A stretch of DNA of 14,352 bases from Promethearchaeota archaeon (GTDB taxonomy: Archaea > Asgardarchaeota > Lokiarchaeia > Sigyniarchaeales > SOKP01). Where the stretch lies: NCBI GenBank assembly GCA_016839765.1, contig JAEOTP010000050.1, forward strand, positions 1-14,352, written 5' to 3'. Below the pieces are notes generated by a model, which saw only the letters and a list, made by a program, of their open reading frames with translations, was not told where the DNA came from and ran no database searches. The position numbers and the translations under genes were made by a program. This document shows positions 1-14,178 of this stretch, in pieces (the stretch's first letter is position 1; each line of letters opens with the position of its first letter).

Positions 1-2931
1 AAGAGAATGAGAGGTTTTAAAGTAACAGATACACCTGGTTATGATACTCATGGATTGCCAATAGAGGTCCAGATGGAAAAAGAACTGGGGATAAAGAACA
101 AGCAAGAAATTTTTGATTATGGGGTAGATAAGTTCATAAAAAGTTGTAAGGAGTTTGCTCAAAAAAATCTCATAATTATGAATGAACAATTTAAGCGGTT
201 AGGTTGTTATTTCTGGGATTGGGAGAACCCCTATATTACTTTTAAAAATAGTTATATTGAAGGAATTTGGTGGACATTAAAGAAAGCTTGGGAAAATGAT
301 TTATTATATCGATTTTATAGACCTTTAAATTGTTGCCCTAGATGTGCTACTGCACTTGCAAAACATGAGCATGATTATAAAAATATCAAGGATACAAGTC
401 TATTTCTAAAAATAAAATCGGCAGACATGGATAAAACCTATTATATAATTTGGACTACAACGCCGTGGACGTTAGTTGCGAACTCAGCGATAATGGCAAA
501 TCCAATTGCGGAGTATGCTAAGGTATATATTGAAGATATTGATGAGTATTGGATCCTTTCAAAAGCATCTATAACTCATTTAATTTCAGGAGAATTAGGA
601 TATAAATATAAAATAGTAGAAGATTTTATTGGAGAAGAATTGGAGGGAAAGAAGTACATACATCCCTTATTAGAAGAAGTTCCTTATCAAAATGAACTTG
701 CAAAAGAAAGCGATAAAATGCATTCAATAGTTCTTTCTGAAGAATATGTTTCAGTATCAGAAGGTGTTGGGTTGGTTCATTCAGCGCCAGGGCATGGACC
801 TGAAGATTTTGAAGTAGGTGTTGAGAATAATATACCAATATTCAATCCTGTGAATATCAGAGGAATTTACAAAAAAGAAGCAGGAAAGTTTGAAGGAATG
901 CATGTTTTTGATGCGAATAGTGAGATATTAGACTTATTAGACAAAAAAGGAACGCTCATATTAACAAATGAGATTGAGCATGAATATGCACACTGTTGGA
1001 GATGTGATTCAAAATTAGTTTATAGAGCAACGAACCAATGGTTTTTTAAAACAGAAAGTCTAGTTTCTGAATTACTAAAAAAGAATGAAGAGATATATTG
1101 GATACCTGATTGGGCAGGAAGCAGATGGTTTAAAAGCTGGTTAACAACCCTAAAAGATTGGTGCATTTCACGACAACGTTTTTGGGGTATCCCTTTAAGT
1201 GTGTGGATATGTGATAATGAAGATTGTGGAGAAATTACCGTAATAGGCTCAAGTAAAGAATTAAAGGAGATTGCGGGAGAATGCCCTAAAGATTTGCATA
1301 GACCATGGATAGACCAAGTAACATGGAAATGTAAAAAGTGTAATAAAGGTACAAAGAAGAGAATTCCCGATATTTTAGACGTATGGTTAGATTCTGGTTC
1401 GGTGGTATGGGCTGCTCAAGAGGTTTATGACGGTGAAAGTCATTATGATACGTGGGTTCCAGCAGATTTTATCATAGAAGGGAAAGATCAGATAAGGGGG
1501 TGGTTTAATAGTTTATTAAACAGCGCAATGTTGTCTTCAGGTCGAAAAAATTACAATGCATGTTATATGCATGGATGGGTGTTAATGGAAAGAGCCAAAA
1601 TGAGCAAATCAAAAGGTACAGTAATAAACCCTGAAGATCTTATAGAAGGTACAGTTCCCGAGTTACAGAAGAATAAGTCATTTTCGAATATTAAAGGAGC
1701 TGAGACATTTAGATTTTATTGTATAGGGGTTACTCAGCCAGGTCGGGATTTCAATTTTAATCTTAAAGAATATACAGATACATATAAGATTCTTAATACA
1801 ATATGGAATGTCTATGTATATGCAAATGAAAAATTTAGCTTAGCTGAATTCAATCCTTCAAAGATAAAATTCGATCTAAAAAAGATAAGCAAATTAGATA
1901 AATGGATAATTTCAAGATTACATTCTACAATCAAAAAAATAACAGAATTATCAGATGGATATCAACTTCCTTGGATTGTGGGTGAATTAAGGGATTATAT
2001 TGTTAATGATATAAGTAGATGGTATATAATGTTGAATCGGGAAAAGCTTGATATTTATTCTGATGACCCAGATAAATTACAAATAATGGCTGTATTGTAT
2101 CACGTGCTGTATAATTATCTATTATTACTGGCACCTGTTAATCCGATGATAACTGAAGAGATTTTTCTAACTATGTTTAAATCTAATCTTAATTCAATGG
2201 GTTCAAAAGAGACTGAGAGTCTACATTTACAGGAATGGCCTCATTTTAATGAAAAAATGATTGACTTAGAATTAGAGACACAAATGCATTTTACAAGAGA
2301 CTTAATAGAAAATGTCAGAGCCTTAAAGGATGAGAATAGGATTAGGTTAAGATGGCCAAATAAGAAAATAATCATAGAACCTAAAGAAGATATGCCGAAA
2401 ATTGAATTTCCAGAAATAGTTAAGCAAATTGGAAATGTGAAAGAATTAGAAGTTTCAAAATCGGTGAAACAAACAAATAATCTATTAAAAATGGAAACAA
2501 GATATTGTAATATATATTTAGATACAAGCATGGATGATGATCTTTTAGCTGAGAGGGTAGTTAATGATTTAATTAGAAACATTCAATTCTCCCGTAAAAA
2601 AAATAAATACAATGTTGGAGAGGATATATCGTTGATAATAGGAACAGATACTAATTACTTAAATGATTATCTCCAGAAAAATAAAGAGTTTATCTCGGAG
2701 AAAGTAACAGCAGGTAAAATAAATGTAATTGAAAAAGACATTGAAGAAGAAAAGGATAAAGTTTATGGCCAACTTTATATTTGCCCTAATAAACATTGTT
2801 CTGCGTCACTAAAACAAAATATAATATCAAAGTTTAAAAAGCAATCTGAAGTTAAATGTCCTTACTGTGATACCAAGTTGAAGGAAAATCAAATAAAAAC
2901 AGTAAAGTTTAATTTTAAAAGACAATCTTAA
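1..2931 (+). CDS. ileS: Isoleucyl-tRNA synthetase, archaeal/eukaryote-like (IleRS2); 5'-partial, frame is open at the window edge
   Basis: Motifs GYDTHGLPIE, WTTTPWTL and GLVHSAPGHGPEDF (CP1 editing domain), HCWRC, DWCISRQRFWG, EGKDQIRGWF, KMSKS (1597-1611). The HIGH motif is absent and bases 1-6 (AAG AGA) continue the frame, so the ATG at 7 is internal. Confidence 0.96.
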   Translation, partial: KRMRGFKVTDTPGYDTHGLPIEVQMEKELGIKNKQEIFDYGVDKFIKSCKEFAQKNLIIMNEQFKRLGCYFWDWENPYITFKNSYIEGIWWTLKKAWENDLLYRFYRPLNCCPRCATALAKHEHDYKNIKDTSLFLKIKSADMDKTYYIIWTTTPWTLVANSAIMANPIAEYAKVYIEDIDEYWILSKASITHLISGELGYKYKIVEDFIGEELEGKKYIHPLLEEVPYQNELAKESDKMHSIVLSEEYVSVSEGVGLVHSAPGHGPEDFEVGVENNIPIFNPVNIRGIYKKEAGKFEGMHVFDANSEILDLLDKKGTLILTNEIEHEYAHCWRCDSKLVYRATNQWFFKTESLVSELLKKNEEIYWIPDWAGSRWFKSWLTTLKDWCISRQRFWGIPLSVWICDNEDCGEITVIGSSKELKEIAGECPKDLHRPWIDQVTWKCKKCNKGTKKRIPDILDVWLDSGSVVWAAQEVYDGESHYDTWVPADFIIEGKDQIRGWFNSLLNSAMLSSGRKNYNACYMHGWVLMERAKMSKSKGTVINPEDLIEGTVPELQKNKSFSNIKGAETFRFYCIGVTQPGRDFNFNLKEYTDTYKILNTIWNVYVYANEKFSLAEFNPSKIKFDLKKISKLDKWIISRLHSTIKKITELSDGYQLPWIVGELRDYIVNDISRWYIMLNREKLDIYSDDPDKLQIMAVLYHVLYNYLLLLAPVNPMITEEIFLTMFKSNLNSMGSKETESLHLQEWPHFNEKMIDLELETQMHFTRDLIENVRALKDENRIRLRWPNKKIIIEPKEDMPKIEFPEIVKQIGNVKELEVSKSVKQTNNLLKMETRYCNIYLDTSMDDDLLAERVVNDLIRNIQFSRKKNKYNVGEDISLIIGTDTNYLNDYLQKNKEFISEKVTAGKINVIEKDIEEEKDKVYGQLYICPNKHCSASLKQNIISKFKKQSEVKCPYCDTKLKENQIKTVKFNFKRQS

Positions 2932-2953
2932 TTATTTTTTAAATTCTCTTTCT
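2932..2953 (+). terminator. Possible archaeal-type T/pyrimidine-rich terminator after ileS
   Basis: TTATTTTTTAAATTCTCTTTCT lies directly after the stop codon, with no GC hairpin. Weak evidence in such AT-rich DNA. Confidence 0.35.
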
Positions 2954-3010
2954 ATTGATTAAGCGTTAAATTGAAAAATTAAATCAATTTTAATATGATA
3001 TTATTTATTA

Positions 3011-3026
3011 TTACTTGTCCAAGTAA
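3011..3026. promoter_or_regulatory. Inverted repeat TTACTTG-TC-CAAGTAA, candidate transcription-factor operator for the heptose/PPP operon
   Basis: Perfect 7-bp arms with a 2-nt spacer, 36 nt before the likely hddA ATG and just downstream of a TATA-like TTTTAATA (2988-2995). Confidence 0.4.
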
Positions 3027-3062
3027 AAATTAAGATTTGAAATAAGATAATTGGTGCCTTAT

Positions 3063-4076
3063 ATGATTATACGTTCGAAAGCCCCTTTTAGAGTGAGTTT
3101 TGGAGGGGGAGGTACTGATATGGCACCTTATTGCACAGAACATGGAGGTTGTGTAATTAATTCAACAATCGACCGCCATGTATTTATTACAATTAAACCT
3201 CGAAATGATAACAAGATTAGAGTGATTTCCACGGATTATGATGAAGATTATAAATTTAAAGTTGGAGATAACAATTATTCTAAGGGTTATGAGTTATTTA
3301 AGGGTACAGTTAATGTCTTGGAAATCAGAGATGGGTTTGATATTGTTGTGTCTTCAGAATTACCTGCTGGTTCGGGGATGGGTGGATCTTCTACTCTATG
3401 TGTTGCACTTATAGGAGCATTTAATGAATTCTATACATTGAACTTGACAAAACATGAAATTGCTCAAAAAGCTTATGATATTGAAAGAGTTGAGTTAAAG
3501 CAGAAAGGAGGATATCAAGATCAATTTGCTGCTGCTTATGGGGGCTTCAATTTTATTGAATTCACAGATATAGTAAAGATATTTCCAATAAACACAACAG
3601 TAGATATGATTAACGAGATACAATATAGAACAATTTTATGTTATGTAGGTGGTTCTCATTTTTCTTCGGACATCCAAGATGAAGTATTAAAAGGTTATAA
3701 AGTTGAAAAGAAATCTTTTATTGAAACAATGCAGGACCTAAAAAATGTTGCATATGAAATGAGAACAATAGTTGAATCTAAAGATGTGAGTAAATTAGAT
3801 CAGTTTGGGGAACTTATTCATAAAGGATGGTTAGCTAAGAAAAGTCTTAGTTCGAAAATCACAAATGAAAACATAAAAAATTTCTATTTAACCTCAAGAA
3901 AATTTGGCGTAATTGGTGGTAAATTACTTGGTGCAGGAGGAGGTGGACATCTTCTTCTCTTTTCAGATCCTGATAAAAAATTTGATGTTATTCATGAATT
4001 AAAAAAAATTGGAGGAGTTATAGTAAATTTTCATTTTAATCCCAAAGGATTAGAAGTTTGGAAATATAATATTTAG
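3063..4076 (+). CDS. hddA: D-glycero-alpha-D-manno-heptose-7-phosphate kinase (GHMP kinase, HddA family)
   Basis: N-terminal APFRVSFGGGGTD, GHMP motif LPAGSGMGGSS, GGYQDQFAAAYGG, GGKLLGAGGGG; adjacent to gmhA/gmhB. Start moved from TTG 3051 to ATG 3063, which has an SD-like GGTG at 3053-3056. Confidence 0.88.
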   Translation: MIIRSKAPFRVSFGGGGTDMAPYCTEHGGCVINSTIDRHVFITIKPRNDNKIRVISTDYDEDYKFKVGDNNYSKGYELFKGTVNVLEIRDGFDIVVSSELPAGSGMGGSSTLCVALIGAFNEFYTLNLTKHEIAQKAYDIERVELKQKGGYQDQFAAAYGGFNFIEFTDIVKIFPINTTVDMINEIQYRTILCYVGGSHFSSDIQDEVLKGYKVEKKSFIETMQDLKNVAYEMRTIVESKDVSKLDQFGELIHKGWLAKKSLSSKITNENIKNFYLTSRKFGVIGGKLLGAGGGGHLLLFSDPDKKFDVIHELKKIGGVIVNFHFNPKGLEVWKYNI

Positions 4077-4105
4077 ATGTAAAGATAAAATATAAAGTGA
4101 TATTT

Positions 4106-4672
4106 ATGGAAAATGAAATAATTTCTATATTGAATGAAAGTATCAAAATTAAGGAAGATATTAAAGAGCTAACCCCTCTAATAGTAAAAGTTTCTAAAGA
4201 AATTATAAAGGCATATAGAAATAAGAAAAAAGTTGTATTATTTGGAAATGGTGGAAGTGCTGCAGATGCACAACACATTGCTGCAGAATTTGTAGGAAAA
4301 TTCTATAAAGATCGTGAATCCCTTCCTGCTTTAGCATTTCACACAAACACATCTGTAGTTACAGCAACTGCTAATGACTATGGTTATGATTTTATATTTG
4401 AAAGACAAGTTTCTTCTTTTGTTGAGGCGGGAGATATTGCTATAGGAATTAGTACTTCTGGAAATTCTCCTAATGTTATAAAGGGATTAATCAAGGCTAA
4501 AGAGAAGGGAGCAATTACTGTAGGTTTTACGGGACAAAAAGAAAATCAGACCGAAAAAGTTGTAGATTATTGCCTAAAGATGCCTTCTACAGATACACCA
4601 AGAATTCAGGAAGGGCATATCACTGTGGGGCATATTATATGTTATTTAGTTGAAAAAGAACTATTTAGTTAA
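4106..4672 (+). CDS. gmhA: Phosphoheptose (sedoheptulose-7-phosphate) isomerase, SIS fold
   Basis: GNGGSAADAQHIAAEF, NDYGY, STSGNSPNV, TPRIQEGH. ATG 4106 is preferred; GTG 4097 is the alternative start. Confidence 0.95.
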   Translation: MENEIISILNESIKIKEDIKELTPLIVKVSKEIIKAYRNKKKVVLFGNGGSAADAQHIAAEFVGKFYKDRESLPALAFHTNTSVVTATANDYGYDFIFERQVSSFVEAGDIAIGISTSGNSPNVIKGLIKAKEKGAITVGFTGQKENQTEKVVDYCLKMPSTDTPRIQEGHITVGHIICYLVEKELFS

Positions 4673-4690
4673 TATATAATTAGAAAAAGT

Positions 4691-5251
4691 ATGATAACCG
4701 ATAATAAAGCGATTTTTCTAGATAGAGACGGAGTTATAAATGAAGAAGTCAGTTATCTCTCTAATCCTGACAACCTTAAGTTAATTGAAGGATCTACTGA
4801 AGCTTTAAGAATTCTTAAGAATTTAGGCTATTTTCTAATTGTAATAACTAATCAAGCGGGAATAGCGAGAGGATATTATACAGAAGAAACTCTTAAGAAA
4901 ATTCATAATAAGATGATTCAAATTTTAGAACAAAATAGTATAGAACTCGATGATATATTTTATTGTCCTCATCATCCTGATTTTACAGGACCGTGTAATT
5001 GCAGAAAACCTAACCCTGGGATGATATTACAAGCAAAAGAAAAATATAATATTAACTTAAGAGAATCTTTTATGGTTGGGGATACATTAAATGATATTAA
5101 AACGGGTTTAGCAGCTGAATGCCAAACGGTATTAGTTTTAACTGGTTATGGGATTGAAGAAAAGAAGAAGATTGATGATGTAATACCTGATTATATTTTT
5201 ACTAATTTATTGGAATTTGCTAAAAATTTAAAATTAGATTCAAAATTATAG
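4691..5251 (+). CDS. gmhB: D-glycero-D-manno-heptose-1,7-bisphosphate 7-phosphatase (HAD IIIA)
   Basis: FLDRDGVIN, TNQAGIARG, zinc motif CPHHP...CNCRKP, MVGD; follows gmhA. Confidence 0.92.
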   Translation: MITDNKAIFLDRDGVINEEVSYLSNPDNLKLIEGSTEALRILKNLGYFLIVITNQAGIARGYYTEETLKKIHNKMIQILEQNSIELDDIFYCPHHPDFTGPCNCRKPNPGMILQAKEKYNINLRESFMVGDTLNDIKTGLAAECQTVLVLTGYGIEEKKKIDDVIPDYIFTNLLEFAKNLKLDSKL

Positions 5252-5281
5252 ATTATTAAAAAAGAATGATGTGAAGATAAT

Positions 5282-5938
5282 ATGAAATTCTTTATAGATA
5301 CCGCTAATTTAGACCAAATTAAAGAAATGCAAGATTTGGGAATAATTGATGGAGTAACCACCAATCCTACATTGTTATCAAAAGAGGGTGCTGAGCCTAT
5401 AGAACAACTAAAAAAAATTTGTGAAATAGTAGATGGACCCATAAGTGCAGAAGTTGTTGGATTAAAAACAGAAGAAATGGTTAAAGAGGCAAGAGAGTTA
5501 GCTAAAATCGCTCCTAATATTGTTATTAAAATTCCAATGACAAGAGATGGCATTAAAGCTGTTAAAATTCTTGAGTCAGAAGGAATCAAAACTAATGTGA
5601 CATTAGTTTTTTCCCAGAATCAAGTCTTAATCGCAGCTAAAGCGGGTGCTTCCTATATAAGTCCCTTTATTGGGAGATTAATGGATGATGGACAAGATGA
5701 GATTGATATGCTATGGGAAACCATGGATATTATTAAAGCTTATAATTTTAAATCTGAATTAATAGTAGCTTCTGTAAGAAATTCCAGACATGTAATTGAA
5801 GCTGCAAAGATGGGGGCTCACATCGCAACAATTCCTTTTAATGTACTTGAAAAAATGTTCAAACATCCTAGAACAGACCAAGGTTTAGATGCATTTCTTA
5901 AAGATTGGGAAAAGTTACAAGCTCAATTAAAAAAATAA
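5282..5938 (+). CDS. tal: Transaldolase (short TalC/FSA-like family)
   Basis: FIDTAN, GVTTNP, Schiff-base Lys in VIKIP, TNVTL. Glu in SAEV and Phe in SPFIGR are the transaldolase-type residues (FSA has Gln/Tyr). Confidence 0.93.
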
Positions 5939-5951
5939 TCAAGATTTAAAA

Positions 5952-6947
5952 ATGGATTTAATTGAATTGATACCTAAATGGAAGAATAAAAAAGTCTTAG
6001 TAATAGGAGAAGCATTAATAGATAGATATATTTTTGGACAAGCTGATAGGATTTCTCCTGACGCTCCGATCCCTAATGTAAAAATTGAACGCCACGAGAC
6101 TTATTTAGGGGCTATTGGCTTAGTTTTACAATTTATAAAGTCATTAGGTGGAAATCCTGAGCTTTGCACAATTGTAGGTGACGATTATGAAGGTGATTTC
6201 TTTGTCAAAAAAATCGAAGCTTTGAACGTTGATTCTTCGAATATTATTATTGATAGTGATACTAACACTCCCCAGATTACTCGAATAAAAGCGATGAACC
6301 AACATTTATTAAGACTTGAAACAGATTATACAACAGAGATTTCACCTACCGCTATTAACGATTTGATTGGCACAATTCAAACGGGTTATGAAAATATTGA
6401 TTCAATTATAATTTTGGATTATGGTGCTGGTGGTCTTTTTCAATATGATTTTATATCGAGATTATTGAGTACTTTAAAAGAAAAACATAAAGAGATTCCC
6501 ATACTAGCGCGTCCGAATGTATCAAATTACTACCTTTATGAAGATATTGATTTAATAAAGATTAATTTACAAAAAGCGTTAACCAATTTTTCAATAGATT
6601 GTTGTACTGAAACTAGTATCATTATTGCTGGTAAGCGTATTATCAACTCATCCAAATGTAAAAATTTACTTCTAAACTATTTAGAAACCGATTCTTTTCT
6701 TTTTTATAAAGATCAAGAAAAGGTTGAAAAAATAAAACCGATTTTAAACCAACCTGTTAGAAGCCATGTGGCAGTTGGTAGTTCTATTATAGCAGTTTTA
6801 GGCTTAACTTATGCTTCTAACATTCCTGTTTTAGAAGGGGCAAAAATTGCTATGTCTGCAGCAGCACTTTCGGCAACTTTTCCACCAGTAGAATTTTTTA
6901 ATTCAGAAACTCTCAAGAATTATATTTCAACAAATTTTGTAGACTAA
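5952..6947 (+). CDS. HldE/RfaE kinase-domain-like PfkB-fold protein, probably catalytically inactive
   Basis: VLVIGEALIDRYIFGQADRISPDAPIP matches the HldE GDVMLDRY..RISPEAPVP motif; QHLLRLE and LDYGAG also match. The NxxE and GAGD motifs are degenerate. Confidence 0.85.
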   Translation: MDLIELIPKWKNKKVLVIGEALIDRYIFGQADRISPDAPIPNVKIERHETYLGAIGLVLQFIKSLGGNPELCTIVGDDYEGDFFVKKIEALNVDSSNIIIDSDTNTPQITRIKAMNQHLLRLETDYTTEISPTAINDLIGTIQTGYENIDSIIILDYGAGGLFQYDFISRLLSTLKEKHKEIPILARPNVSNYYLYEDIDLIKINLQKALTNFSIDCCTETSIIIAGKRIINSSKCKNLLLNYLETDSFLFYKDQEKVEKIKPILNQPVRSHVAVGSSIIAVLGLTYASNIPVLEGAKIAMSAAALSATFPPVEFFNSETLKNYISTNFVD

Positions 6948-6959
6948 TTATAAAAAATT

Positions 6960-7817
6960 GTGTATGATTTAGTGAAAATCTCGAAAGAAGATGAAAAACA
7001 GATTTTAGGAGAGATTATTGAGCTTAAAAAAGATATCTTAAAAATGCTATATCAAGCACAATCAGGACACCCAGGAGGCTCATTATCCTGCGTAAATATA
7101 ATCTTTCTACTGTATACTAAAATTATGAGATTTAAAAAGGATAATCCTTTATGGAAAAAGAGAGATATATTTATCTTAAGTAAAGGTCATGCTGCCCCTG
7201 CATTATATGCAGTATTATCTAAAATTGGACTTATCGACAGACAAGAATTATTTACACTTAGGAAATTTGGATCTGATTTACAAGGTCATCCCGTAAAAAA
7301 TCCTAAATTAGGAATAGAGATTTCCACTGGTTCATTAGGAATGGGTTTATCAATAGGAGTCGGATGTGCTTTAGCATCTAAAATAGATAAAAAGCAAAAT
7401 TTGATTTATGTGCTGATTGGTGACGGAGAATTAAATGAAGGTGCAATATGGGAAGCAGCAATGGCAGCAAGTCATTACAAATTGGATAATTTAATTGCGA
7501 TTGTAGACCGTAATGGTATTCAGATAGATGGATCAACTGAAGAAATTATGGCGTTAGAACCCCTAGCTGAAAAATGGAAAGCCTTTGGCTGGGAAGTAAT
7601 AGAAGTGGATGGTTCAAATCTCAATGATATAATTCAAGGATTTGAAAAATCTAAAAAAATTTTAAGAAAACCTAAAGTAATAATTTTTTACCTTATCAAG
7701 GGCTCAGAGGTCTCATTCATGGAGCACACTAGAAAATTTCATGGAAGGGCGCCTAATAAGGAAGAATATGAGACAGCAATTATCGAGCTTGAAAAAATTA
7801 AAAAAGATTTAGTTTGA
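6960..7817 (+). CDS. Transketolase, N-terminal (ThDP-binding) subunit
   Basis: SGHPGGSLS, LSKGHAAP, LQGHP, STGSLGMGLS, ThDP motif GDGELNEG...N, C-terminal HG; GTG start. Confidence 0.95.
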   Translation: MYDLVKISKEDEKQILGEIIELKKDILKMLYQAQSGHPGGSLSCVNIIFLLYTKIMRFKKDNPLWKKRDIFILSKGHAAPALYAVLSKIGLIDRQELFTLRKFGSDLQGHPVKNPKLGIEISTGSLGMGLSIGVGCALASKIDKKQNLIYVLIGDGELNEGAIWEAAMAASHYKLDNLIAIVDRNGIQIDGSTEEIMALEPLAEKWKAFGWEVIEVDGSNLNDIIQGFEKSKKILRKPKVIIFYLIKGSEVSFMEHTRKFHGRAPNKEEYETAIIELEKIKKDLV

Positions 7818-7827
7818 GGTAAATTAA

Positions 7828-8763
7828 ATGGAAGAAAAATTACTTCGCGACACTTTTGGAGACTATTTAGTGAAAGTGGGTAAAAATAATGCAGATCTTG
7901 TGGTATTAGATGCTGATTTGTCCACTTCAACAAGAACCAACAAATTTGCTAATGAATTTCCACACAGATTTTTTAATATGGGGATTGCCGAACAGAACAT
8001 GGTTGGTGTAGCTTTAGGTTTTGCTATTTCTGGTAAAGTTCCGGTAGTTAGTGGTTTCTCGATATTTACTACAGGAAGAGCTTGGGAGTTTATACGGTTA
8101 GCTTCTCATGACAATTTGAACATTAAATTCATAACCACCCATGCGGGTATTGTGGGTGAAGATGGAAGCACTCATCATGCTCTAGAGGACTTGAGTTTAA
8201 TGTCTGTTTTACCTAATTTGAATGTTTTAGTACCTTCTGATAATATTGAGCTGAATGAGATTTTGGATTATGCTTTAAAATCCCACGGGCCTTTTTATAT
8301 AAGACTGCCGAGAGGATCTTTTCCAAAGATTCATAATCAAGATTATAATTTTACACTTGGAAAACCTGACATATTGAAAGAGGGGAATGATATCTGCTTA
8401 ATAGCAGCTGGATATGGTAATTTTTTAGCCTTGGAATCAATATCAAAAATTGAAAAAGAGTTAAATATCTCCGCGAAAGTTATTAATCTTCCCAGTATAA
8501 AACCAATTGACAAAGAAGCTTTAATAAAAGAAGTAAATGATATGAAAGCTATAATAGTAATTGAAGAACATAATGTTTATTGTGGATTTGGCTCTATTAT
8601 AACAAGGATAATAACAGAAGTATATCCAATAAAAATAAAATGTATAGGAGTAGAAAATTCATTTGGGTCTTCAGGAAATAGAGAAGACTTATTAAACTTT
8701 TTCAACTTAAATACAGAAAAAATAATTGAAGAAATTAAATTAATGCTGAAAATAAATGTTTAA
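7828..8763 (+). CDS. Transketolase, C-terminal subunit
   Basis: DADLSTST, GIAEQNM, GEDGSTHH, YIRLPR, IEEH; SD-like GAGGT at 7816-7820 overlaps the upstream stop codon. Confidence 0.95.
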   Translation: MEEKLLRDTFGDYLVKVGKNNADLVVLDADLSTSTRTNKFANEFPHRFFNMGIAEQNMVGVALGFAISGKVPVVSGFSIFTTGRAWEFIRLASHDNLNIKFITTHAGIVGEDGSTHHALEDLSLMSVLPNLNVLVPSDNIELNEILDYALKSHGPFYIRLPRGSFPKIHNQDYNFTLGKPDILKEGNDICLIAAGYGNFLALESISKIEKELNISAKVINLPSIKPIDKEALIKEVNDMKAIIVIEEHNVYCGFGSIITRIITEVYPIKIKCIGVENSFGSSGNREDLLNFFNLNTEKIIEEIKLMLKINV

Positions 8764-8802
8764 ATTAAGATCTAATCATTTAAATTTAATTTTGAAATAA
8801 TT

Positions 8803-9426
8803 ATGAAGAAAATCGCAGTATCTATACATGCTAATGAGAATTTTAATCCAGATATTTTAAAAGATTTAAAAGATATAGATTTCATTCACATTGATGTTAT
8901 GGATGGTAAGTTTTTAGATACTTTAAATTTGAATTTAGAAATTTTTAAAGTAGTTAAAGAAAATTTTAACATACCAATATTAGCTCACCTTATGGTGGTG
9001 GATCCATTAAATTACATTAATGCGATCATTGATTATGTTTATGCTTTTCTATTTCATTTTGAAATAGATACAGATATTACCAGCGTTATTAAAGAGGTAA
9101 AAAAACACAACAAAAAAGTAGGTTTAGTAATAAATCCCGTTACTAAAATTTCAGATGTTTTAGAATATCTATCTTTATTAGATATTATTTTGGTTTTGGG
9201 AGTTAATCCAGGATGGTCTGGACAGAAATTCATCCCAGATACTATAATTAAAGTTGAAAATTTAGCGAAATATAAAACAAAATATAATTTTTTAATAGAT
9301 GTTGATGGTGGTATAAACCCTATAACTGCTAAAATGTTGGTAAAAGCGGATATTTTAACAAGCGCAAGCGCAATCTTAAATGCAGATGAACCAAACAAAG
9401 TAATTCAAAAATTGAAAGTTATATAA
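8803..9426 (+). CDS. rpe: Ribulose-phosphate 3-epimerase family protein
   Basis: HIDVMDG, AHLMV, VNPGWSGQKF, DVDGGIN retain the His/Asp/His/Asp metal ligands; co-located with tal and tkt. Confidence 0.9.
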   Translation: MKKIAVSIHANENFNPDILKDLKDIDFIHIDVMDGKFLDTLNLNLEIFKVVKENFNIPILAHLMVVDPLNYINAIIDYVYAFLFHFEIDTDITSVIKEVKKHNKKVGLVINPVTKISDVLEYLSLLDIILVLGVNPGWSGQKFIPDTIIKVENLAKYKTKYNFLIDVDGGINPITAKMLVKADILTSASAILNADEPNKVIQKLKVI

Positions 9427-9446
9427 AATTATAACTTATTTGTTAT

Positions 9447-9473
9447 TATCTTATTTTTAAGATACTCCTTTTT
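9447..9473 (+). terminator. Possible terminator between the convergent operons
   Basis: Hairpin TATCTTA-TTTT-TAAGATA (9447-9464) followed by CTCCTTTTT. Confidence 0.35.
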
Positions 9474-9543
9474 CAATAAATAGGCTAAACGCATTTAAAT
9501 CAAAAGTCCTATTTGATAACAATTTAATGAAAATTGAAATTAT

Positions 9544-10401
9544 TTATTTCTTATATTTAGAAAGGATTAGACTCAATTTAGAATTATCTCCCCAAAAGGC
9601 CATCGGCACATAATCGAGGTAAGGGAAATATCCTAAATTTAACTTTATATCTTTCTTTTTAGATTCTAAATAATTTTCAATTAATCTTCTAACTGAAATA
9701 GGTTTTCCACTACAACAATTAATAATTCCACAAATCCCATTTTGTAATGATATTTTTACAATATATTCTGCTACTTTTTCTACAGATAAAAAATCTCTCA
9801 ATTGTTCGCCACCAGACATATTAAAAACTTCTGCATTATTTTCCAATGCTTTATCTAATTGTGGAATTAAGGATTTTGAGGATTGGCCTTTTCCACACAT
9901 ATAGAAAAGCCTTATCCATTTAAATTTAAAATCATATATTGGTTTTAATTGATCAATAAATTTTCTAAGAGTATCTTTTGCTAGTGAATAACTAATATTT
10001 GGTTCCGAAGGTAAATCCTCTGATAAGCAACCACTTTGAAATCCATATTCAAAACAAGTTCCCATTACATTCAAATCTTTAAGACCATTAATGACCATGT
10101 TTTTTATAAAATTATAATTAGAGAATAGATTTTTTTCGAAATGAAATAATTCCTTGAAATTCGGTAGCCCTTCCCAAGCCAAATGTATTAATAAATCTGG
10201 CTCTCCAAAGAACTCAAAATAATTTTGTTTACTTTCATTTAGGTTACTCCTAATATATTTCACTTTATTATACCAATTATATTTTTTAGCTTTATCTTGG
10301 TTTGTAGAAGTAGCAATAATCTCGTTTTTCCCCATTTTTAATAATTCTTGAACTACGTAATTGCCAATAAATCCTGTAGCTCCAGTTATAAGAATTCTCA
10401 A
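9544..10401 (-). CDS. Extended SDR, probable NDP-4-keto-6-deoxysugar 4-reductase
   Basis: TGATGFIG, HLAW, GTCFEYG, YxxxK (YSLAK), GGEQLRDFL; TTG start with SD-like GAGGT (complement of 10409-10413); last gene after rfbF-rfbG-epimerase. Confidence 0.85.
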   Translation of the reverse strand: MRILITGATGFIGNYVVQELLKMGKNEIIATSTNQDKAKKYNWYNKVKYIRSNLNESKQNYFEFFGEPDLLIHLAWEGLPNFKELFHFEKNLFSNYNFIKNMVINGLKDLNVMGTCFEYGFQSGCLSEDLPSEPNISYSLAKDTLRKFIDQLKPIYDFKFKWIRLFYMCGKGQSSKSLIPQLDKALENNAEVFNMSGGEQLRDFLSVEKVAEYIVKISLQNGICGIINCCSGKPISVRRLIENYLESKKKDIKLNLGYFPYLDYVPMAFWGDNSKLSLILSKYKK

Positions 10402-10404
10402 CTT

Positions 10405-10956
10405 TTATACCTCAATATCTTTAAAAACTTCAGAAATTAGTTTTAGATTCTTATCTTTTTCTGAAATGTCACTTATTTCTAAAGGCCATTTAATTCCTAT
10501 TTTAGGATCATTATATCTAACCCCTCCTTCATTTTCAGGGCTATAAAATTCTGTCGTAAAATAAATCAACTCTACATCTTTCTCTAAAGATTGAAATCCA
10601 TGAGCAAAACCTTCTGGTATATATAACATTTTCATGTTTTTAGCAGATAATATCTCACTATGATACTTTAAGAATGTTTTGGAATTTTTTCTTAAATCGA
10701 TTGCAACATCAAAGATTGACCCCTTAATACATTTTATTATTTTGATTTCTGCTTTCGGAGGATATTGAAAATGTATTCCTCTAATAGAACCTTTCTTTTT
10801 AGTGACCGAATGATTAATATTAACAATTTCTTTATAATGACCAATTTTTTTTATATCATTTTTACAAAAAACTCTAGCAAACATTCCACGATGGTCTCTA
10901 AAAGGTTCTGGTTCAATTACGTATACATCTTTAATTTTTGTTTTGAAAAATTTCAT
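10405..10956 (-). CDS. rfbC: RmlC/RfbC-like NDP-4-keto-6-deoxyhexose 3(,5)-epimerase (cupin)
   Basis: DHRGMFAR, RGIHFQ, GSIFDVAIDLR, YIPEGFAHGF, YNDPKIGIKWP, ISEKD. Start set to ATG 10956, 4 nt after the rfbG stop. Confidence 0.9.
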   Translation of the reverse strand: MKFFKTKIKDVYVIEPEPFRDHRGMFARVFCKNDIKKIGHYKEIVNINHSVTKKKGSIRGIHFQYPPKAEIKIIKCIKGSIFDVAIDLRKNSKTFLKYHSEILSAKNMKMLYIPEGFAHGFQSLEKDVELIYFTTEFYSPENEGGVRYNDPKIGIKWPLEISDISEKDKNLKLISEVFKDIEV

Positions 10957-10960
10957 AATA

Positions 10961-12040
10961 TCAAGTGATATAATTTTTAAAATACTCATTTATAAGTTTA
11001 ACATTATAATCATAATCGATATCTTCATAAAAATACCAATCACATGTGAATTTTATAGCATCATCTAAATTTATTGCTGGCTCCCATGCTAAATATTTTT
11101 TAGCTTTAGTAATATCCAATATTAAAAATTTAGTTTCATGAAAATCATCTTCTATGTTTTCAGATTGAATTTGATAATTGCCTTTCCCTGTGTATTTTAT
11201 AATCTTTTCAATAACTTCTATAACTTTATAAATGTCATATTGATTAGGTCCAAAATTCCATGCACTTGAATAAAAATTATCTCCTTTCCACATTTTCATA
11301 GTTAGCATTAAAAAGCCCCGGAGAGGCTCTAAAACATATTGCCATGGTCTCACTGAATTTGGATTTCTTATGATAAGATCTGTATTATTTTCTATTGCGT
11401 TCATAAAATCTGGGATTAATCTGTCTTCTTGCCAATCTCCTCCACCAATTATATTTCCGCATCTCACAGTAGAAACTATTTTTCTATTTTCAACTGAATT
11501 TTCATTAAAAAAGGATTTTCTATAGGAGGCAGTTATAAGTTCGGAACATGCTTTACTCGAACTATAGGGGTCAAAACCACCAAGTCTATCATTTTCATTA
11601 TATCCTCTTTTTAACTCTAAATTTTCATAACATTTATCTGTTGTAAAATTTATCATCAATTTAGAGCTTTTAGATTTTCTAAAAGCTTCAAATATATTTA
11701 TTGTTCCAATAATGTTTGTTTCAAATGTTTCTTTAGGAAATGTATATGATTTTCTTACAATTGGTTGAGCAGCCAGATGAAAGATTATTTCAGGACGGCA
11801 TATTTTAACAATACCATTAAGTTTATCATAATCTCGAATATCTCCAATAACACTTTCGGTTTTCGCTTCTAAATTAGCTTTAACAAAATTTCCTTTATCA
11901 TTATAAGGGGAGAGTGCATATCCTATTACTTTTGCTCCAAGTTCATTAAGTATAATGGCTAACCAAGAACCAATAAAACCAGTGTGTCCTGTAAGGAGAA
12001 TTTTTTTATCTTCAAAAAATCCTCCAAAAATTTTCTTCAT
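10961..12040 (-). CDS. rfbG: CDP-glucose 4,6-dehydratase
   Basis: TGHTGFIGSW, HLAAQPIVR, TDKCYEN, DPYSSSK, GNIIGGGDW, RPWQYVLEPL, WNFGP, HE. ATG 12040 overlaps the rfbF stop (ATGA). Confidence 0.93.
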   Translation of the reverse strand: MKKIFGGFFEDKKILLTGHTGFIGSWLAIILNELGAKVIGYALSPYNDKGNFVKANLEAKTESVIGDIRDYDKLNGIVKICRPEIIFHLAAQPIVRKSYTFPKETFETNIIGTINIFEAFRKSKSSKLMINFTTDKCYENLELKRGYNENDRLGGFDPYSSSKACSELITASYRKSFFNENSVENRKIVSTVRCGNIIGGGDWQEDRLIPDFMNAIENNTDLIIRNPNSVRPWQYVLEPLRGFLMLTMKMWKGDNFYSSAWNFGPNQYDIYKVIEVIEKIIKYTGKGNYQIQSENIEDDFHETKFLILDITKAKKYLAWEPAINLDDAIKFTCDWYFYEDIDYDYNVKLINEYFKNYIT

Positions 12041-12813
12041 TTCCAATTGTTCCAAAATGCTCTATTTGTATTCCATAATTTATTTAAGTAAATCACATCT
12101 CTTTCATGATCCATACATGACCAACTTCCGTCATATTTATAAACCATTACTTCTCCTTTTTTAGCTAAATCTTCTAACGGTCCATGTTCGAAATCACAAT
12201 CTTCATCAGCACTAAGATAATCTAATAAATCATTATTGAAGACCATAAAACCTCCATTTATTAATCCAACTGATGTTTGTGGCTTCTCTTCAAAAGTTAA
12301 AACTTTCCCGCTTTTTTCATACAACTCTCCAAAACGAGATGGAGGATGAACTCCAGTAATTGTAATAATTTTTCCATGTGATTTATGAAATTCAATTAGA
12401 TTATTGATATTAATGTTGGCTAAACCATCTCCATAAGTTAGCATATTCATTTCAGGATCTAAATATTTTTCTACCCTTTTAATTCTTCCACCTTTTAATG
12501 TATTTAATCCTGTGTCAATTAAAGTAACTTTCCAATCTAACTTATCATTGATATTATGAAATTGGATATTTTCATTTGATAAATCCATTGTGAAATCATT
12601 ATTCTGTATATAGTAATTGTAAAAATAATCCTTAATGATTTCTCCTCTCACTCCTAAGCATATAATAAAATCTTTGTATCCATAATGCGCATAAATTTTC
12701 ATAATATGCCATAATATGGGTTTATTACCTATTTTTACCATTGGTTTTGGAATTAATTCAGTAAGACGACCAAGTCTAGTTCCCCATCCTCCCGCTAATA
12801 CTATAACCTTCAT
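12037..12813 (-). CDS. rfbF: Glucose-1-phosphate cytidylyltransferase family protein
   Basis: LAGGWGTRL, PKPMVKIG, DTG...GGRIKR, LTYGDG, FEEKP, INGGFMV, Trp-rich C-terminus; translationally coupled to rfbG. Confidence 0.9.
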   Translation of the reverse strand: MKVIVLAGGWGTRLGRLTELIPKPMVKIGNKPILWHIMKIYAHYGYKDFIICLGVRGEIIKDYFYNYYIQNNDFTMDLSNENIQFHNINDKLDWKVTLIDTGLNTLKGGRIKRVEKYLDPEMNMLTYGDGLANININNLIEFHKSHGKIITITGVHPPSRFGELYEKSGKVLTFEEKPQTSVGLINGGFMVFNNDLLDYLSADEDCDFEHGPLEDLAKKGEVMVYKYDGSWSCMDHERDVIYLNKLWNTNRAFWNNWK

Positions 12814-13059: not shown

Positions 13060-14178
13060 TCAAATTAACTTATTTAAAACTAAATTTAATTTCTTGCTTA
13101 ACTTTTCAATTGTACAACAACTATTAAATAATATATGTGCATTTTCTTTAATTTTATTTCTTAACAATTCATCATTTTTTAACTTAATTATTGAATTTGC
13201 TAAAACTTTTGGGTTAGCAGGTTCACATAAAAGAATATCTTCATTATGCGTCAATAATTCTTTTATTGCCGAGCTTTCACATGTAATCATTGGAATTTTC
13301 ATTGCCATCCCTTCGAATAGTTTATTTGGAATGACTAAAAGAGTTTTTAAATCTTTACCAAATAATCCTAATCCTATGTCAAAATTTGATATCATTTCAG
13401 ATAGTTCATTTAGATTTCCTTTTAGAAAGATTTTTTCAATAAAATTAATATTTTTAAGATTTAATTTTTCTGCTAATTCTTTATTGCTTTTTAATGTCTG
13501 TCCTGTTCCAATTAATTGAAATAAAATATTTTTTTCGTTTTCAATCAGCTTAAATGCTTGAATCATATATTTTACGCCATGTAAAGGTATAAAAGTACCC
13601 CAATATCCAATTATAAATTTATCTTTTGCTTTTTTTTTAATTGGATGAAAAATGTCATCTCTCGCACCAACATAAATTTTTCGAAATTTTTTTAGAGGAA
13701 CTTTATATTTTTCATGAAAATATTTTATGTGTGAAGCTGTATCTAATAAAATATAATTAGATAAATGACACTCCAAGAAATCAAGAAGATAGTAATAAAA
13801 CCAATAATAAATTTTTGGTTTAAACCTCTTTTTAACATTTGCTAATTTACGATCATAAAAATATGTAAGAAGTTTAGAGATAAAAATATCGTGTACAAAA
13901 GGAATTCGCTTGATATAGGCAAAAATTCTAGATAATATAAAATTAATAATTGAAGTCCTTATTGAGTAAAAGATTACAATATCAATTCTTCTTTTTTTAA
14001 ATTTCTTAAAACTTTTTAAAAGTACTTTTATTCTTTGTTTCTTATTAAAGTTAGTAAGATTTATTTGATATACATTAATTCCTTGGTTCCTTAAGCCATT
14101 TATAAAAATGTAATTTCGAGAATAATTCTCATCATAATCACCTATATATAAAACATTTTTTATTTCATTCGAAGGCAT
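13060..14178 (-). CDS. Glycosyltransferase, GT4-like (GT-B fold)
   Basis: YWGTFIPLHGV, LIGTGQ, PNKLFEGMAMKIPMIT typical of the Glycos_transf_1 C-terminal domain; upstream of NDP-sugar genes. Confidence 0.85.
   Translation of the reverse strand: MPSNEIKNVLYIGDYDENYSRNYIFINGLRNQGINVYQINLTNFNKKQRIKVLLKSFKKFKKRRIDIVIFYSIRTSIINFILSRIFAYIKRIPFVHDIFISKLLTYFYDRKLANVKKRFKPKIYYWFYYYLLDFLECHLSNYILLDTASHIKYFHEKYKVPLKKFRKIYVGARDDIFHPIKKKAKDKFIIGYWGTFIPLHGVKYMIQAFKLIENEKNILFQLIGTGQTLKSNKELAEKLNLKNINFIEKIFLKGNLNELSEMISNFDIGLGLFGKDLKTLLVIPNKLFEGMAMKIPMITCESSAIKELLTHNEDILLCEPANPKVLANSIIKLKNDELLRNKIKENAHILFNSCCTIEKLSKKLNLVLNKLI

Follow-up and report, generated by a model that had tools for sequence, protein, structure and literature searches.

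A cassette of heptose and pentose phosphate genes in a Loki-type Asgard family, with a PfkB-fold protein that has lost its kinase motifs

The cassette and its enzymes

The stretch of DNA analyzed here (the window, 14,352 bp) is the whole of contig JAEOTP010000050.1, called C26 in our set, and belongs to a 3.32-Mb metagenome-assembled genome (MAG; 96% complete; GC about 30%) of a Promethearchaeota archaeon. It contains a cassette of eight genes in which enzymes of heptose biosynthesis are interleaved with those of the non-oxidative pentose phosphate pathway (PPP), including a transketolase split into two subunits, TktN and TktC, and a protein derived from the heptose kinase HldE, referred to below as PK. 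The cassette and the two spacers that border it are as follows:

2932..3062, plus strand: AT-rich spacer upstream of hddA, with a T6 tract just past the ileS stop codon
3063..4076, plus strand: hddA, GHMP kinase; alternative TTG start at 3051
4106..4672, plus strand: gmhA, sedoheptulose-7-phosphate isomerase, SIS fold; alternative GTG start at 4097
4691..5251, plus strand: gmhB, heptose-1,7-bisphosphate 7-phosphatase, HAD-IIIA
5282..5938, plus strand: tal, short-type transaldolase
5952..6947, plus strand: PK gene, HldE/HldA-derived PfkB-fold protein without kinase catalytic motifs
6960..7817, plus strand: tktN, N-terminal (thiamine-diphosphate-binding) subunit of transketolase
7828..8763, plus strand: tktC, C-terminal subunit of transketolase (pyrimidine-binding and C-terminal domains)
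8803..9426, plus strand: rpe, ribulose-phosphate 3-epimerase family
9427..9543, no strand: intergenic spacer between convergent genes, containing two T5 tracts

Open reading frames (ORFs) and family assignments confirm the initial annotation of eight co-directional, interleaved genes at 3063-9426, and the gaps it listed (29, 18, 30, 13, 12, 10 and 39 nt) are reproduced exactly using the ATG starts. Each of these starts is preceded by a Shine-Dalgarno-like motif, GGTG or GTGA; the 29-nt gap between hddA and gmhA holds if gmhA starts with the ATG at 4106, 9 nt upstream of which stands a GTGA motif. In the sequence, T runs of five or longer are absent from all internal gaps of the cassette. Together with the T6 tract after ileS and the two T5 tracts after rpe, this pattern is consistent with a single transcription unit, whose promoter would probably lie in the spacer 2932..3062 and whose end, like that of the opposing cytidine diphosphate (CDP)-sugar operon, is likely to lie in 9427..9543.

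The three heptose enzymes were assigned from family models, motifs and solved structures. GmhB scores above the cut-offs of both NF006506 (203 bits vs. 178) and TIGR00213 (172 vs. 150) and carries the DxDG motif in the form DRDGV, the Cys/His zinc motif and CRKP. GmhA matches SIS_2 (E 8e-25) and contains the motifs GNGGSAADAQH and ISTSGNS; its best NCBIfam matches are GmhA models only, TIGR00441 with 166 bits (cut-off 209) and NF010546 with 174 bits, all of the cut-offs, which lie between 209 and 276, being missed. HddA comprises the Pfam domains GHMP_kinases_N and GHMP_kinases_C with the motifs PAGSGMGGSS and GAGGGG, and aligns over its full length with the solved heptokinases 3k85, 4n3o and WcbL 4usk (E about 3e-55), fucokinase following far behind (1e-21). 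Its best NCBIfam match, NF049969, reaches 235 bits, under the cut-off of 600.

As for the PPP genes, Tal exceeds the cut-off of TIGR00875 (304 bits vs. 246), and its nearest solved structures are the transaldolases 1vpx, 3r8r and 3s0c (232-278 bits), whereas structures of fructose-6-phosphate aldolase (FSA) score 113 bits. Alignment to TacTal 3s0c places the transaldolase-type Glu (SAEVV), the Schiff-base Lys (KIPMT) and the Phe (SPFIGR) at the diagnostic positions, and an assignment of tal as a fructose-6-phosphate aldolase was rejected on these grounds. The closest relatives of Tal (81-98% identity) are all from MAGs labelled Promethearchaeota or other Asgard names; the source MAG itself contains no SSU rRNA. 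TktN matches Transketolase_N (E 4e-49) with the GDG...N thiamine-diphosphate motif, and TktC matches Transket_pyr and Transketolase_C with the motifs GIAEQN, containing the catalytic Glu, and GSTHH. Rpe is recognized by PF00834 (E 1e-37, 130 bits) and falls just below the cut-off of NF004076 (159.7 bits vs. 165). The genes tal (the sole TAL_FSA gene), tktN, rpe, gmhA, hddA and the PK gene are each present in one copy in the 96%-complete genome.

In bacteria, GDP-D-glycero-alpha-D-manno-heptose for S-layer glycans and capsules is made by the pathway GmhA-HddA-GmhB-HddC, for example in Aneurinibacillus thermoaerophilus, Campylobacter and Burkholderia (WcbL). The Asgard cassette combines the same families of SIS isomerase, GHMP 1-kinase and HAD-IIIA 7-phosphatase in one operon, but has no HddC in or near it and adds transketolase, transaldolase, Rpe and the putative HldE-derived pseudokinase. 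It is a new version of known pathways, with the heptose genes of the GDP-heptose route minus HddC and the PPP genes of archaeal split-transketolase operons. Literature searches on heptose, transketolase or the ribulose monophosphate (RuMP) route in Asgard archaea and Lokiarchaeota turned up neither the cassette nor the PK clade.

Occurrence as a block at one genomic site

The distribution of the cassette was surveyed in 135 species genomes of one Loki-type Asgard family, which are relatives, so that the counts given below are not independent samples. PK is found in 66 relatives, and TktN and GmhA in 65 each; their genes share contigs and adjoin one another. PK and TktN occur together in 65 genomes and are both missing from 67; PK stands alone in two and transketolase in one, all of these lone cases being at contig edges. 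For GmhA and TktN the corresponding numbers are 61 genomes with both, 64 with neither and five each with a single one. Within the family, transketolase and the cluster-type Tal (at least 81% identity) occur only in the cassette, beside the heptose genes, and this Tal has PK as its neighbour in every case. Of the 41 genomes in the window's own genus only 10 have the cassette, and absence is genuine, several 100%-complete genomes of the genus being without transketolase, GmhA and PK.

Comparison of the genomic site in the two groups reveals how the cassette comes and goes. In cassette-bearing genomes, the genes for sulfate adenylyltransferase (Sat), a phosphodiesterase and APS (adenosine phosphosulfate) kinase (CysC) are followed by tktC-tktN-PK-tal-gmhB-rpe-gmhA-hddA, a short-chain dehydrogenase/reductase (SDR) gene and ileS. 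The cassette-free genomes G249 and G234 of the same genus read ileS-SDR-CysC-phosphodiesterase-Sat, with about 180 bp at the position of the cassette. Since the flanking genes are joined directly in these genomes, the cassette is a block that one site inside a glycan island either has or lacks as a whole. The left neighbour of this site, ileS, is conserved in several genera. Another cassette-free genome of the same genus (G264) has an rpe gene at the ileS-SDR locus (L231:7532-8152), either left over from the cassette or reflecting, perhaps, the ancestral state.

The synteny survey suggested by the initial annotation recovered the cluster in 11 related species genomes, 20 further regions and 6 metagenome contigs, and the conservation of gene order is far beyond chance. 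Variants were also seen: in most genera rpe is located between gmhA and gmhB, whereas the window's genus has it at the 3' end; tal is missing from one genus, and both tal and gmhB from two genomes. Outside the family, G133, a genome of the same taxonomic order, reads gmhB-PK (35% identity)-tktN-tktC-Sat.

Split transketolase operons are otherwise known from Thermoplasmata, Methanoperedens, Methanococcales and other Asgard families, and have TktN and TktC, the short Tal and Rpe in common with the cassette (50-58% identity for TktN and 61-66% for Tal). In contrast to the cassette, these operons have no heptose genes within the flanks examined; other Asgard families possess plain rpe-tktN-tktC-tal operons, and at the 70 non-Asgard tal loci closest in sequence no heptose gene was found within 7 kb. 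One large family has a fused transketolase of 680 residues (78 of 89 genomes). In the cassette family, transketolase and the cluster-type Tal are confined to a heptose cassette carried by about half of the genomes. This distribution suggests that the family acquired or kept the two enzymes for one sugar precursor of surface glycans and not for central metabolism. It bears on an old question, in which archaea a pentose phosphate pathway occurs and for what reason, and the presence of a non-oxidative PPP in metabolic reconstructions of Asgard archaea would have to be read differently.

Two further transaldolase-related observations were made during the survey. A second TAL_FSA-type gene, 38-44% identical to the cassette Tal and encoding a putative transaldolase or fructose-6-phosphate aldolase, is present in many family genomes without any transketolase (G234, C37:20732-21379; G260, C32:6308-6958; and about 25 others). 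In two metagenome contigs (L211:6001-8622 and L214:6001-7577) a canonical HldE-type kinase with the motif GAGDA is followed directly by a Tal-like gene (33-36% identity), with a gmhA-like gene close to this pair in L211, an unrelated case of coupling between heptose and transaldolase genes.

Supply of sedoheptulose 7-phosphate and the likely product

Transaldolase and transketolase make sedoheptulose 7-phosphate (S7P), the substrate of GmhA. Many archaea are without both enzymes and use the reverse RuMP route, which supplies their pentoses. In the cassette family, the Fae-Hps fusion of this route scores over its cut-off in 116 of the 135 genomes and is matched in all 36 high-quality genomes. 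A search of the source genome for other copies, also proposed in the initial annotation, revealed no second tal or tktN, and located Fae-Hps, a PHI-like gene (152.5 bits vs. a cut-off of 160) and RpiA (C96:130024-130719) outside the cassette. The genome further encodes dehydroquinate (DHQ) synthase II (PF01959, 342 bits), a marker of the aromatic amino acid route that is independent of erythrose 4-phosphate; DAHP (3-deoxy-D-arabino-heptulosonate 7-phosphate) synthase of the PF00793 type was not found in it, class II DAHP synthase not having been searched. Judging from Fae-Hps, the PHI-like protein, RpiA and DHQ synthase II, both classical housekeeping roles of transketolase and transaldolase, the provision of pentoses and of aromatic amino acids, are thus covered by other genes. 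This coverage, together with the half of the family that lives without the two enzymes, is the strongest support for a dedicated S7P supply. Many family genomes contain in addition an ORF of about 500 residues in which the first 160 form a Fae domain alone (e.g., G241:C62:19432-19911), apparently Fae fused to another partner.

The initial annotation had regarded all the PPP enzymes of the operon as such a supply. For transketolase and transaldolase the proposal is well supported by their restriction to the cassette, its inheritance as a block and the coverage of the housekeeping roles; for Rpe it had to be given up. The Rpe family is present in 89 of the 135 genomes, cassette-free ones included, where the gene stands in a row purE-rpiA-rpe beside a divergent xylulokinase-like FGGY kinase (L233:2957-6365 in G234; parallels in L232, L234-L238 and L246). 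The row resembles a pentulose route without transketolase. In the source genome purE-rpiA is kept (C96:130024-131129) and no rpe is found there; the cassette copy is therefore the sole Rpe of the cell. The position of ribose-5-phosphate isomerase outside the operon was also correctly stated, as the location of RpiA on C96 confirms, but the accompanying claim that it is not needed for making S7P from fructose 6-phosphate and glyceraldehyde 3-phosphate does not extend to the cassettes without tal: S7P must there come from pentose phosphates via transketolase, which requires RpiA in trans.

On this evidence we consider it likely that the cassette is an accessory, block-inherited unit of a surface-glycan island in one Loki-type Asgard family, equipped with its own S7P supply, and that transketolase and transaldolase probably exist in these cells mainly to feed a surface-sugar pathway. 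The split transketolase and Tal, with Rpe and with RpiA in trans, would make S7P with carbon from fructose 6-phosphate and glyceraldehyde 3-phosphate, or from pentose phosphates of the housekeeping RuMP route (Fae-Hps and PHI). GmhA would convert S7P to the 7-phosphate of D-glycero-D-manno-heptose, HddA, the GHMP kinase, would phosphorylate C1 to give the alpha anomer, and GmhB would take off the 7-phosphate to leave heptose 1-phosphate. Activation to a nucleoside diphosphate (NDP)-heptose is predicted to take place in trans, probably through one of the ManC-like nucleotidyltransferases of the genome, and the activated product would feed the glycosyltransferases of the surrounding island.

The cassette could instead be an ordinary non-oxidative PPP operon of central carbon metabolism, channelling for instance pentoses or nucleosides into glycolysis, with the heptose genes as mere neighbours. 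Such operons, rpe-tktN-tktC-tal or tktN-tktC-tal without heptose genes, do exist in other archaea and Asgard families, and with a xylulokinase-like gene and a single Rpe in the genome, transketolase and Tal would open a route from pentose to hexose. Against this stand the interleaving of the genes, which do not form two adjacent blocks, and their gain or loss as one block inside a glycan island. Transketolase is never found away from gmhA, hddA and PK in the 135 genomes, and half of the family, 100%-complete genomes included, lives without it. We therefore regard this explanation as unlikely.

A second alternative concerns the product, which might be another higher-carbon sugar or S7P derivative, such as an octose formed by transaldolase chain extension. 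The nearest precedent for a transaldolase among genes of GmhA, HddA and GmhB type is the octose pathway of lincomycin and celesticetin, with LmbR (transaldolase), LmbN (GmhA-like), LmbP (GHMP kinase), LmbK (GmhB-like) and LmbO (nucleotidyltransferase) (PMC4351081, citing Sasaki 2012 and Lin 2014). The likeness is one of enzyme class only: the lincomycin pathway belongs to an actinomycete antibiotic cluster and not to a glycan island, its transaldolase extends a pentose to an octulose, and it includes a guanylyltransferase but neither transketolase nor Rpe. While GmhA and HddA remain under their equivalog cut-offs, which would leave room for such a substrate, the variants without tal (one genus and two further genomes) keep gmhA and hddA, the invariant partner is transketolase, which forms S7P directly, Tal itself is highly conserved and nearest to housekeeping transaldolases of archaea and bacteria, and HddA is nearest to solved heptokinases. 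An octose or similar product thus appears improbable.

Several points nevertheless weigh against a heptose cassette with its own S7P supply, in addition to the relatedness of the genomes surveyed. The NCBIfam scores of GmhA and HddA imply that their substrate could differ from the one assigned, and Rpe is not specific to the cassette. Transketolase and Tal, once present, would also link pentoses to glycolysis, and exclusive use for heptose cannot be shown from genomes. The route from heptose 1-phosphate to a glycan appears incomplete on paper, no nucleotidyltransferase of the HddC, ManC, RfbF or HldE-domain-II type being found at 31 related loci, either inside the cassette or in the roughly 7-10 kb around it; the step to a glycan donor is for this reason inferred. 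Finally, no heptose was reported in the one published Asgard glycoproteome, from a different organism (PMC11284389).

Candidates for the activation step were looked for in the rest of the source genome. An HldE-domain-II or HldC nucleotidyltransferase was not found: TIGR02199 reaches 56 bits against a cut-off of 181, and of the four matches to PF01467 the two top-scoring ones are a RibL-like protein, encoded next to riboflavin kinase, and phosphopantetheine adenylyltransferase (PPAT). Two ManC-like nucleotidyltransferases are encoded elsewhere in the genome, on C33 and C72, and are the obvious candidates for activating heptose 1-phosphate. The remaining genes of the window were also considered:

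7-2931, plus strand: ileS, 5'-truncated at the contig start (about 1050-1060 residues in relatives), with an archaeal/eukaryotic-type C-terminal DUF5915
9544-12813, minus strand: convergent operon for glucose-1-phosphate cytidylyltransferase (NT258), CDP-glucose 4,6-dehydratase, an RmlC-type 3,5-epimerase and an SDR reductase
13060-14178, minus strand: family 4 (GT4) glycosyltransferase, beyond the CDP-sugar operon on the same strand

The convergent operon, with its genes of RfbF/RfbG/RmlC type, was rejected, for want of support, as the part completing a CDP-heptose route: NT258 is a glucose-1-phosphate cytidylyltransferase equivalog (325 bits vs. a cut-off of 300), and the operon lies beside the cassette in no relative. 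Its 4,6-dehydratase scores 440 bits against a cut-off of 278. The SDR genes next to hddA were likewise rejected as cassette-specific heptose modifiers, for they persist in cassette-free genomes.

In the relatives, the cassette is surrounded by genes for paralogues of SDR 4,6-dehydratases/epimerases, GT4 and GT2 glycosyltransferases, WecB, an ABC-2 exporter, sulfate adenylyltransferase and APS kinase, sulfotransferases and an FkbM methyltransferase, a gene content indicative of a surface-glycan island with sulfation. A conserved group of three genes, for Sat, a 460-residue protein of the type I phosphodiesterase/nucleotide-pyrophosphatase family and APS kinase, borders the site of the cassette (L131:5226-8353, L229:4972-7351), with sulfotransferases nearby (L139:2071-2949), which suggests that the glycans are sulfated. 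From the cassette, surface glycans that contain heptose and are probably sulfated are predicted for about half of the Loki-type lineages. In two genera a second GHMP kinase, 34-35% identical to HddA, is encoded in divergent orientation next to SDR genes by the cassette (L137:4197-5186, L138:15983-16969).

The HldE-derived PfkB-fold protein

The initial annotation had called the fifth gene HldE-like, a name that would suggest a second kinase. Homology and fold agree with this name. PK matches HldA (4e84) with E 4e-17, and its AlphaFold2 model (pLDDT 89.5, pTM 0.90) displays a ribokinase-like fold with a beta-clasp lid, for which the top Foldseek matches are the HldA structures 4e84 and 4e8y (E 1e-26, TM 0.81-0.87), followed by Pfk-2 and ribokinases. 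The lid motifs of the N-terminal part, D..Y..G...RISP[DE]APVP, T..TR and Q.LR.[DE], are shared with HldA and conserved. The role as a kinase, on the other hand, is contradicted by the loss of the catalytic and ATP/Mg motifs of the PfkB family: GAGD is replaced by AVGS (Asp277Ser), NxxE by NLQK, DPK by RPN and GG by GA, so that PK differs from HldA in the catalytic Asp, the Glu of NxxE, the Asp and Lys of DPK and the second Gly of GG. These replacements are found in 12 of 12 first orthologues and in all 24 clade members, and the loss extends to more distant members, with identities as low as 31% (P0007, P0010, P0013, P0014 and G133), whereas 122 representatives of canonical HldE kinases retain GG, NxxE, DPK and GAGD.

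Conservation was further compared at 58 positions, each at least 80% conserved in the 122 canonical representatives. Up to residue 160, on the lid and sugar side, the PK clade agrees with the canonical kinases at 26 of 37 positions; from residue 187 on, on the catalytic side, it does so at only 6 of 21, and this side is assumed to contain the ATP and Mg site. Replaced as well are the conserved C-terminal positions Thr242, Gly247, Asn301 and Gly312, presumably residues of the ATP loop. In the active site, three acidic residues are exchanged (Asp187 to Arg, Glu208 to Lys and Asp277 to Ser), and the resulting Arg/Lys/Ser set would suit a bisphosphate or sugar-1-phosphate ligand.

The possibility of a decaying pseudogene was rejected, since over 60 genomes have the reading frame unbroken and the ratio of nonsynonymous to synonymous substitution rates (dN/dS) is about 0.19, a rough value as dS is near saturation, which lies inside the range of 0.07-0.22 of the cassette neighbours. 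From the motif loss combined with the low dN/dS, we conclude that PK is maintained under purifying selection and is very unlikely to be a kinase. A heptose-7-phosphate kinase of the beta anomer, by which the cassette would make both alpha- and beta-heptose 1-phosphate and also feed a route to ADP-, CDP- or UDP-heptose, seems highly improbable: PK is conserved, is homologous to HldA over its full length and has kept the sugar-binding N-terminal half intact, and beta-type heptose enzymes, of a purpose called elusive, are known in archaea (PMC11573728), but Asp to Ser, NxxE to NxxK, DPK to RPx, GG to GA and the C-terminal replacements recur in 24 of 24 clade members, and the genome has no nucleotidyltransferase of HldE-domain-II type, its top PF01467 matches being the RibL-like protein and PPAT. 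The cassette thus differs from the ADP-heptose (beta) pathway of HldE/HldA and HldC in lacking both active PfkB kinase motifs and, at the level of the genome, an HldC-type match over cut-off.

PK is probably a pseudokinase or a heptose-phosphate-binding protein. It resembles the plant FLN proteins, which are PfkB pseudokinases, and is not related to them by descent. PK always adjoins tktN, and this adjacency persists outside the family in G133. The lid that would bind the sugar phosphate is kept, and PK most likely acts as a non-catalytic partner or regulator of the adjacent transketolase that binds heptose or sedoheptulose phosphate. With this, a conserved clade of putative pseudokinases tied to transketolase is newly defined. 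More tentatively, and with a rather low likelihood, PK might be the founder of a new functional class, either a sensor of heptose or sedoheptulose phosphate that physically controls the split transketolase and adjusts S7P production to the demand for glycan, or an enzyme repurposed for the missing activation step; in either case the cells would have a heptose factory that regulates itself or is self-sufficient, without described counterpart.

Scanning metagenomes with the PK alignment yielded six contigs with close relatives of the cassette, all other matches being canonical HldE kinases bearing GAGD; longer, fused forms of PK were not found in the search, which is weak evidence. In the ESM Atlas, PK falls into its own cluster only, which is 97% archaeal and bears the label "hypothetical protein". 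Another divergent lineage of HldE-like proteins, in which GYRD... or GYWD replaces GAGD, is represented by P0017 and by a gene of G073 (L141:675-1667). The latter also adjoins tktN and has a CmcI-type rhamnosyl O-methyltransferase nearby.

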